In this document: positions 31,711-31,929 of the stretch, one piece after another
Layout of the letters: every line of letters starts with the position of its first letter
How positions within the stretch are numbered: position 1 is the stretch's first letter
DNA from: an uncultured bacterium
Lineage (GTDB): Bacteria; JADJOY01
Assembly (NCBI GenBank): GCA_964650975.1
Contig: CAZYWA010000001.1
Span: forward strand, 6,980-70,979
Direction: 5' to 3'
Length of the DNA: 64,000 nucleotides
The notes under the pieces: model-generated
What the model saw: only the letters and a program-made list of their open reading frames with translations
What the model was told of the DNA's origin: nothing
The model's database searches: none
Made by a program: the position numbers and the translations under genes

Positions 31711-31929
31711 TCAGTAGAGCTTCACGACCTTCACGCCTTCGGGCGAAGCCTGCATGCACAGGTCGCAGAGCGTGCACTCGTCGAGGTTCTTCTCGACGGT
31801 CGTCACCGAGCTCTTGTCCGCCGTGAGCGCGAAGATCTTGACGGGGCACATCTCGACCAGCTTGGGCGCGAGCCCCGCGGTCTTGCGGACGACGTCGTCC
31901 TTCACATCTACCTGAATGAACATGGCCAT
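31711..31929 (-). CDS. Small FixX-like ferredoxin-like protein with a single [4Fe-4S] motif set.
   Basis: 72 aa. IQVDVK...LVEMCPVKIF...CTLCDLC parallels E. coli FixX (VNVDVK...LVKACPAGLY...CLECGTC). It sits between the ligase α-subunit gene and mcl on the same strand. Confidence 0.5.
   Translation of the reverse strand: MAMFIQVDVKDDVVRKTAGLAPKLVEMCPVKIFALTADKSSVTTVEKNLDECTLCDLCMQASPEGVKVVKLY

Follow-up and report, generated by a model that had tools for sequence, protein, structure and literature searches.

What does a small ferredoxin-like protein do in an operon whose enzymes catalyze reactions that require no electrons? This question is raised by a 64,000-nucleotide (nt) stretch of DNA from an uncultured bacterium (contig CAZYWA010000001.1, positions 6,980 to 70,979; hereafter the window), in which a gene for a protein of 72 amino acids (aa) sits among the genes of a coenzyme A (CoA) ligase and a malyl-CoA lyase. 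The small gene (31711-31929, minus strand) encodes the protein MAMFIQVDVKDDVVRKTAGLAPKLVEMCPVKIFALTADKSSVTTVEKNLDECTLCDLCMQASPEGVKVVKLY, for which the fold model and the homologues point to a ferredoxin fold with one predicted [4Fe-4S] site formed by C28, C52, C55, and C58. The strongest result of our analysis is that this gene is co-inherited with, and apparently translationally coupled to, the alpha and beta subunit genes of one clade of CoA ligases. Its product may be an iron-sulfur (Fe-S) subunit of that enzyme.

The original prediction had placed a 72-aa open reading frame (ORF) at this position, and the ORF was found exactly there, on the minus strand. All of the residue strings cited for its product occur in the translation; of the four cysteines, C28 was numbered correctly, whereas those given as 53, 56, and 59 were one too high. 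The flanking genes are also those that had been described, namely a sucD-like alpha subunit (31953-32861), an ATP-grasp beta subunit (32911-34110), and an HpcH/HpaI lyase (30628-31698). Beta, alpha, the small gene, and the lyase form a row of four tightly packed genes on the minus strand of the window. A spacer of 23 nt (31930-31952, minus strand), read from the sequence, separates the alpha stop codon (31953-31955) from the ATG of the small gene and contains a Shine-Dalgarno motif, GAGGAG (31939-31944), 9 nt 5′ of that ATG; the ATG of the lyase follows 12 nt past the stop codon of the small gene. Inside this operon, we detected neither a promoter- or terminator-like pattern on the minus strand nor any Rfam family.

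The small ORF is a real, strongly constrained protein-coding gene. A search of 5.8 billion proteins returned 536 clusters that match its product at an expectation value (E) of at most 1e-3, hence the ORF goes beyond what chance would produce. Among the best 120 of these 536 clusters, which were examined for identity, the proteins are 69-96% identical to it and 71-76 aa long. Its GC content at the three codon positions (0.575, 0.342, and 0.918) follows a pattern shared by the flanking genes, in a genome of about 68% GC. Two 77-aa ORFs of identical third-position GC content (3768-4001 and 22856-23089) were considered as duplicates and rejected; they look out-of-frame.

The family to which the small protein belongs is compact. 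A HMMER scan run without filters on 1.84 billion representatives clustered at 50% identity recovered 140 clusters only; their proteins are stand-alone and about 70-90 aa long. Among the species representatives of GTDB, 288 genomes encode a relative, all of them metagenome-assembled genomes (MAGs) labelled as Binatia/Binatota, as Myxococcota (Polyangiales, "Myxococcales", "Deltaproteobacteria"), or as Chloroflexota/Dehalococcoidia. The population from which the window comes is probably also the source of two JGI metagenome contigs: in one (L144, Ga0265320_10018929), beta, alpha, and the small protein are all 100% identical to those of the window, and in the other (L091, Ga0265313_10071699), beta is 100% identical at the protein level. 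Database names for the small protein are uninformative: NCBI lists it as "hypothetical protein", and the IMG name "PreA subunit", derived from COG1146 and not from FixX, is misleading. Neither Pfam nor NCBIfam holds a model for the family. The best Pfam match of the small protein, to Fer4_7, stays at 20.9 bits, below the threshold of 27, and the Pfam field is blank ("-") for all of the best 120 listed homologues; matches to Fer4_7 or Fer4_9 are recorded for relatives with eight cysteines, which are discussed below. Literature searches, including searches of full text, found no paper that describes the small gene.

Genomic coupling of the small gene to the ligase

The association between the small gene and the ligase was examined from both sides. 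The forward sample was retrieved via the small protein and comprised 80 GTDB loci, kept from the 288 matches, of Binatia, Myxococcota/Polyangiales, and Chloroflexota/Dehalococcoidia. In nearly every locus with enough sequence, alpha lies directly upstream of the small gene on the same strand, and beta lies before alpha. The reverse sample was retrieved via the beta subunit (52-100% identity) and comprised 67 metagenome loci, 49 of which have at least 1200 nt downstream; alpha and then the small gene follow in all 49. Across 136 loci, 1-39 nt (median 17, modes 2 and 17) separate the stop codon of alpha from the ATG of the small gene, with GGAG-type motifs sitting within the 3′ end of alpha. The absence of this ORF from syntenic loci had been named as an outcome that would refute the original prediction; instead, the ORF is strongly kept.

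The arrangement extends to distant members of the family. In a marine relative with 47% identity (P0139), the order is Mcl, beta, alpha, and then the small gene after a gap of 8 nt. A relative with 41% identity and eight cysteines (P0156; L089/L090) follows beta and alpha after 2 nt, and in another of this kind with 38% identity (P0260; L158), which follows a CitE-like lyase, beta, and alpha, the stop and start codons overlap. Exceptions were few. In L017 (about 3740-6213), beta and alpha are direct neighbors in divergent orientation, and in L015 (5354-6213), a second copy from the same MAG as L011, the small gene accompanies a truncated alpha of which about 178 aa were matched. One further exception (L030) is considered with the role of the protein below.

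Unbiased clustering of coding-like ORFs from the 80 loci yielded only three general neighbors, with alpha in 72 loci, beta in 65, and HpcH-type lyases in 60; no family of oxidoreductases was broadly conserved around the small gene. The frequency of the lyases raises the possibility that the true partner of the small protein is an HpcH/CitE-type lyase or another protein of the pathway, or else that the protein is a zinc-binding or metal-free small adaptor. Indeed, the small gene lies directly before Mcl in the window and in L012, L032, and L042, and in L030 it comes after a CitE-like lyase and has no ligase near it. However, the invariant neighbor is alpha and not the lyase, which is missing within 6 kilobases (kb) in L011, L016, L057, and L085. 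Between sucD-like and mcl-like genes, where its conservation was to be checked, the small gene follows alpha nearly everywhere, whereas the position, strand, and copy number of the lyase vary. As to the adaptor, a CP motif together with CxxCxxC in a ferredoxin fold constitutes a canonical [4Fe-4S] site. We consider this group of explanations improbable.

Ferredoxin fold, predicted cluster site, and comparison with FixX

AlphaFold2, supplied with an alignment of 25 sequences, produced a model with a predicted local distance difference test score (pLDDT) of 87.7 and the topology beta-alpha-alpha-beta-beta-alpha-alpha-beta, from which the small protein is predicted to have a bacterial-type (beta-alpha-beta)2 ferredoxin fold. 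In the same alignment, 26 of the 72 positions are invariant. In classical two-cluster ferredoxins, the cysteine of the CP in motif 1 and the first three cysteines of motif 2 ligate the so-called cluster II. Exactly these four cysteines are kept in the small protein, and the first three cysteines of motif 1 are gone. Motif 2 now reads CxxCxxCxxxSP; of 101 sequences, 69 have S at the last of its former cysteine positions, 8 have T, and 9 have C. C28, C52, C55, and C58 are invariant in all 101 non-redundant homologues (consensus MaMFIrvdv...kLvEvCPV.IF...N.DECTLCdLC.qa.p...KLY), so that a complete set of four ligands for one cluster is kept family-wide while the ligands of cluster I are absent. 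The small protein most likely binds one [4Fe-4S] cluster through these four residues.

The origin of this pattern can be read from distant relatives. About 15 of the 140 cluster representatives keep all eight cysteines, in the arrangement Cx4-5Cx2-3Cx3CP ... CxxCxxCxxxCP, and share with the other members an N-terminal MGxF and a C-terminal KLY (P0156, P0168, P0188, P0191, P0205, P0234, P0245, P0249, P0255, P0258, and P0260 are among them). The persistence of these forms indicates that the ancestor of the family was a two-cluster ferredoxin and that cluster I was lost from it. A few other relatives, with 5-7 cysteines, look intermediate and form a series showing cluster loss.

The original prediction had likened the small protein to FixX, and the resemblance of the motifs is real: FixX of Escherichia coli (E. 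coli) combines an identical CP...CxxCxxC layout with the N-terminal string VNVDVK, reading ...VNVDVK...LLVKACPAGLY...CLECGTC. A FixX identity, for which a profile search had been suggested, finds no support. The NCBIfam FixX model (NF011993, PRK15449; COG2440), which has a cut-off of 166 bits and scores E. coli FixX at 214 bits, was silent on the small protein even at E < 1. The best NCBIfam matches were instead OGOR_delta, HgcB, NapF, and RnfB, which scored 14-18 bits where the cut-offs are 69-378. A BLASTP comparison with E. coli FixX returned E = 14, and a profile-sequence comparison with hhalign gave a probability of 59.5% over 34 columns, covering the cysteine core only. A tblastn search of 72,556 plasmids detected no fixX at E ≤ 10 and yielded only insignificant matches of the NapF type.

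The genomic surroundings agree with this outcome. The statement that no fixABC genes are present was borne out, as tblastn searches with E. coli FixA, FixB, and FixC (E ≤ 1e-3) found nothing in the 64-kb window, and about 159 related loci yielded nothing but one weak FixA-like match (L058). The small protein has no significant sequence relationship to the FixX of E. coli or rhizobia or to EtfX of Thermotoga maritima (PDB 7koe_H); its 72 aa lack a C-terminal extension, unlike the 95 aa of FixX, and, again unlike FixX, its gene adjoins a CoA ligase and not fixABC or electron transfer flavoprotein (ETF) genes in nearly all loci. Based on the model score, BLASTP, hhalign, the plasmid search, and the missing fixABC neighbors, we rejected membership in FixX. 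That the small gene is a FixX orthologue of a FixABCX/EtfABCX system, displaced from fixABC, is an explanation close to refuted.

Comparison of structures offered a different analogue. The best Foldseek matches in the PDB were ferredoxin-like domains of archaeal RNA polymerase subunit D, namely domain 3 of subunit D/Rpo3 (2pa8_D, E 4.7e-4, template modelling score 0.66, 22% identity; also 7ok0_D), followed by cluster-less eukaryotic counterparts from Pol IV/V and then by DsrB, ABCE1, AprB, PorD, and PsaC. The single-cluster CP...CxxCxxC of subunit D aligns residue for residue with that of the small protein, and the similarity of the sequences is not significant (E 0.1-0.3). The small protein is stand-alone and bacterial and has a ligase as its partner, whereas the Rpo3 domain is inserted in an RNA polymerase subunit of 260 aa. 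The cluster of subunit D, as reported by Hirata et al. in 2008 and by the Lessner lab, is non-catalytic, belongs to an enzyme that carries out no redox reaction, and probably has a role in structure and assembly. We favor it as a functional analogy for the small protein.

Other relatives of the fold are electron carriers, and these bring forward the main rival explanation, a free soluble single-cluster ferredoxin that serves an oxidoreductase encoded elsewhere. Such a partner could be, for instance, a 2-oxoacid:ferredoxin oxidoreductase (OFOR) of the KorAB type, whose acyl-CoA product would be converted by the ligase into acid and ATP, co-transcription serving co-regulation only. The fold and the cysteine pattern are those of electron-transfer ferredoxins, and some distant relatives retain the cysteines of both clusters. 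The best match in the PDB by sequence is the electron-transferring N-terminal [4Fe-4S] domain of LctC from the lactate dehydrogenase/Etf complex of Acetobacterium woodii (7qh2_A), at a borderline E of 0.012. This domain shares the CP...CxxCxxC...xP layout and has also lost the last cysteine of its motif 2; it is, however, fused to an electron-bifurcating flavoprotein, and the small gene has no flavoprotein partner. The best NCBIfam match is the delta subunit of an OFOR (OGOR_delta, NF042987), far below threshold at 18.3 bits against a cut-off of 125. OFOR delta subunits (PorD 9bt4_H, OorD 8ys5_D), like PsaC and FwdG, carry two clusters and lie in operons with their own oxidoreductase, whereas the small protein stands beside a redox-neutral ligase.

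Acidity is also consistent with a free ferredoxin, since the family has a median isoelectric point (pI) of 4.6 and a median net charge of -4. The protein of the window has a net charge of -1, which had suggested a protein too neutral to be a soluble ferredoxin; in view of these family values, that argument was abandoned. Moreover, the window does encode a KorAB-like OFOR about 9 kb away from the small gene. It consists of a 652-aa POR/POR_N/PFOR_II protein (19655-21613, plus strand) and a 345-aa TPP_enzyme_C subunit (21610-22647, plus strand), and enzymes of this type require an external ferredoxin. As a conserved redox partner, this OFOR was rejected: among about 159 related loci it recurs near the module just in L042, the closest relative of the window. 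In addition, no oxidoreductase is a general neighbor of the small gene, the reactions of the module itself require no electrons, and the coupling to alpha (1-39 nt in 136 loci; 49 of 49 loci in the reverse test) is far tighter than is usual for a shared electron carrier. We regard a free ferredoxin as a serious but minority possibility.

Partner enzymes and pathway context

The ligase encoded next to the small gene is a divergent, ADP-forming enzyme that resembles succinyl-CoA synthetase (SCS) and citryl-CoA synthetase. Its beta subunit (399 aa; 32911-34110, minus strand) matches ATP-grasp_2 (1.4e-25) and, weakly, Citrate_bind in Pfam. Among NCBIfam models, it scores 155.9 bits for SucC against a cut-off of 370 and 118.6 bits for MtkA against 604, and its closest PDB chains are the large subunit of citryl-CoA synthetase (6hxq_B, 120 bits) and the beta subunit of Thermus SCS (3ufx_B, 111 bits). 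The alpha subunit (302 aa; 31953-32861, minus strand) combines a CoA_binding domain (4.2e-25) with a Ligase_CoA domain and carries a GHAG phosphohistidine motif, its SFGHAG aligning with the catalytic-histidine motif of the Thermus enzyme. It reaches 295 bits for SucD against a cut-off of 336, and its best PDB match is the alpha subunit of Thermus SCS (3ufx_A, 1e-78), relative to which it has an insertion of six residues. Judged by these comparisons, beta is much more divergent than alpha from characterized ligases.

The partner genes share their domain architecture and the catalytic-histidine motif with SucCD, with the malate-CoA ligase MtkAB, and with the citryl-CoA synthetase CcsAB (6hxq), and differ from them in that neither alpha nor beta scores high enough for an NCBIfam equivalog match to SucC, SucD, or MtkA. 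The sequence therefore leaves the acid substrate among malate, succinate, and other C4-C6 dicarboxylates. We know of no characterized SucCD, MtkAB, or CcsAB enzyme with a third gene or subunit of the Fe-S type.

Downstream of the small gene, the lyase (356 aa; 30628-31698, minus strand; Pfam HpcH_HpaI, 9.9e-27) is an L-malyl-CoA/beta-methylmalyl-CoA/(S)-citramalyl-CoA lyase (Mcl) of the Chloroflexus type. A phmmer comparison matched it over residues 5-348 to MCL of Chloroflexus aurantiacus (4l7z) at 3.4e-147, with 2.7e-144 for 6kin; the trifunctional Chloroflexus enzyme (4l7z) has been described (PMC3832036). A lyase of this type is the usual neighbor of the ligase. A second, CitE-like lyase (about 285 aa) is a common addition in related loci, and further frequent neighbors are a mesaconyl-CoA hydratase (MC_hydratase), a fused B12 mutase of 650-665 aa, and a long acyl-CoA dehydrogenase (about 550-590 aa) whose size and domains are like those of methylsuccinyl-CoA dehydrogenase. 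Flanks of this ethylmalonyl-CoA type, with dehydrogenases of 553-586 aa, were observed in L087/L088 (6665-9418) and in L001, L002, L008, L009, L014, L059, L062, L071, and L076-L078.

Based on this gene content, the module appears to belong to C2/C1 assimilation of the ethylmalonyl-CoA or serine-cycle type. The ligase may replace a malyl-CoA thioesterase step, or may supply malyl-CoA or succinate. A KEGG-based survey reported mtkA/B and mcl in most Binatota genomes, calls that may not represent this ligase clade, and made no mention of a small ferredoxin-like gene (bioRxiv 10.1101/2020.09.14.296780).

Several other genes lie close to the module. A 637-aa ORF (28432-30345, minus strand; third-position GC content 0.86) is located 282 nt downstream of the malyl-CoA lyase in the window; it matches no Pfam family at E ≤ 1e-5, and a copy with 76% identity occupies the same position in L042. 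On the other side, a Sulfotransfer_3 gene (34391-35509, plus strand) is divergent from the ligase operon across an intergenic region of 280 nt, and a hybrid histidine kinase with two receiver domains (37767-40280, minus strand) lies about 3.6 kb upstream of the operon. About 25 of the 80 GTDB loci have a luciferase-like monooxygenase (Bac_luciferase, 290 aa) upstream of the module of lyase and ligase genes; L019 (892-1764), which was checked as a representative, carries the label Polyangiales.

A putative iron-sulfur subunit of the ligase

We propose that the small protein is an Fe-S "gamma" subunit or accessory of the ligase, with a structural or redox-sensing role, a proposal to which we assign about an even chance. 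The original prediction, which had suggested an electron-transfer accessory or a structural subunit of the ligase/lyase complex, thereby finds partial support. The protein would be made in step with alpha and beta and would dock on the ligase as its third subunit. Since the reactions of the ligase and the lyase are redox-neutral, the cluster would remain outside the chemistry; it might be structural, as suggested for its archaeal analogue, or might act as a sensor of redox state, O2, or iron that controls the assembly or activity of the enzyme.

Several points weigh against this proposal. The physical association between the small protein and the ligase is something that we infer rather than observe directly, and to our knowledge an Fe-S subunit on a nucleoside diphosphate (NDP)-forming CoA ligase would be without precedent. 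The eight-cysteine ancestors look like ordinary ferredoxins that act as electron wires, and the moderate acidity of the family (median pI 4.6) is that of soluble ferredoxins. In L030, the small gene (6001-6213) follows a CitE-like lyase and there is no ligase within 6 kb. Divergence is correlated between the small protein and alpha (r 0.84 for pairwise identities), between the small protein and beta (0.83), and between alpha and beta (0.87), and this result is non-discriminating because any co-inherited operon would give the same. Finally, apparent fusions of alpha with the small protein (P0136, P0237, P0215, P0204, and P0236) were discarded as frameshift read-throughs. Their junctions are rich in Arg, Pro, and Ser, as is typical of frameshifted high-GC DNA, and hence they were judged to be artefacts of assembly or gene calling.

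As far as we can tell, the association between the small gene and the ligase is new, while the fold itself is ordinary. Succinyl-CoA-synthetase-type ligases are textbook enzymes, two-subunit and redox-neutral. An obligatory Fe-S co-gene would represent a new regulatory or structural layer on an enzyme of central metabolism, or would point to a redox step so far hidden in the malyl-CoA branch of C1/C2 assimilation. More tentatively, the operon could encode a new class of three-subunit (alpha-beta-gamma), ADP-forming dicarboxylate-CoA ligases, in which a [4Fe-4S] gamma subunit derived from a ferredoxin gates assembly or activity in response to redox state, O2, or iron. If true, this would be the first Fe-S subunit in the NDP-forming acyl-CoA synthetase superfamily.

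The family also documents how a two-cluster ferredoxin lost one of its clusters step by step. Its hosts are abundant uncultured lineages of soil, sediment, and marine environments, namely Binatia, Polyangiales, and Dehalococcoidia-type Chloroflexota. Because the small gene is named uninformatively and is covered by no Pfam or NCBIfam model, it is missed when the metabolism of these phyla is reconstructed. If the ligase does carry such a subunit, assimilation through the malyl-CoA, ethylmalonyl-CoA, and serine-cycle routes in Binatia, Myxococcota, and Chloroflexota would be tied to the redox state of the cell.
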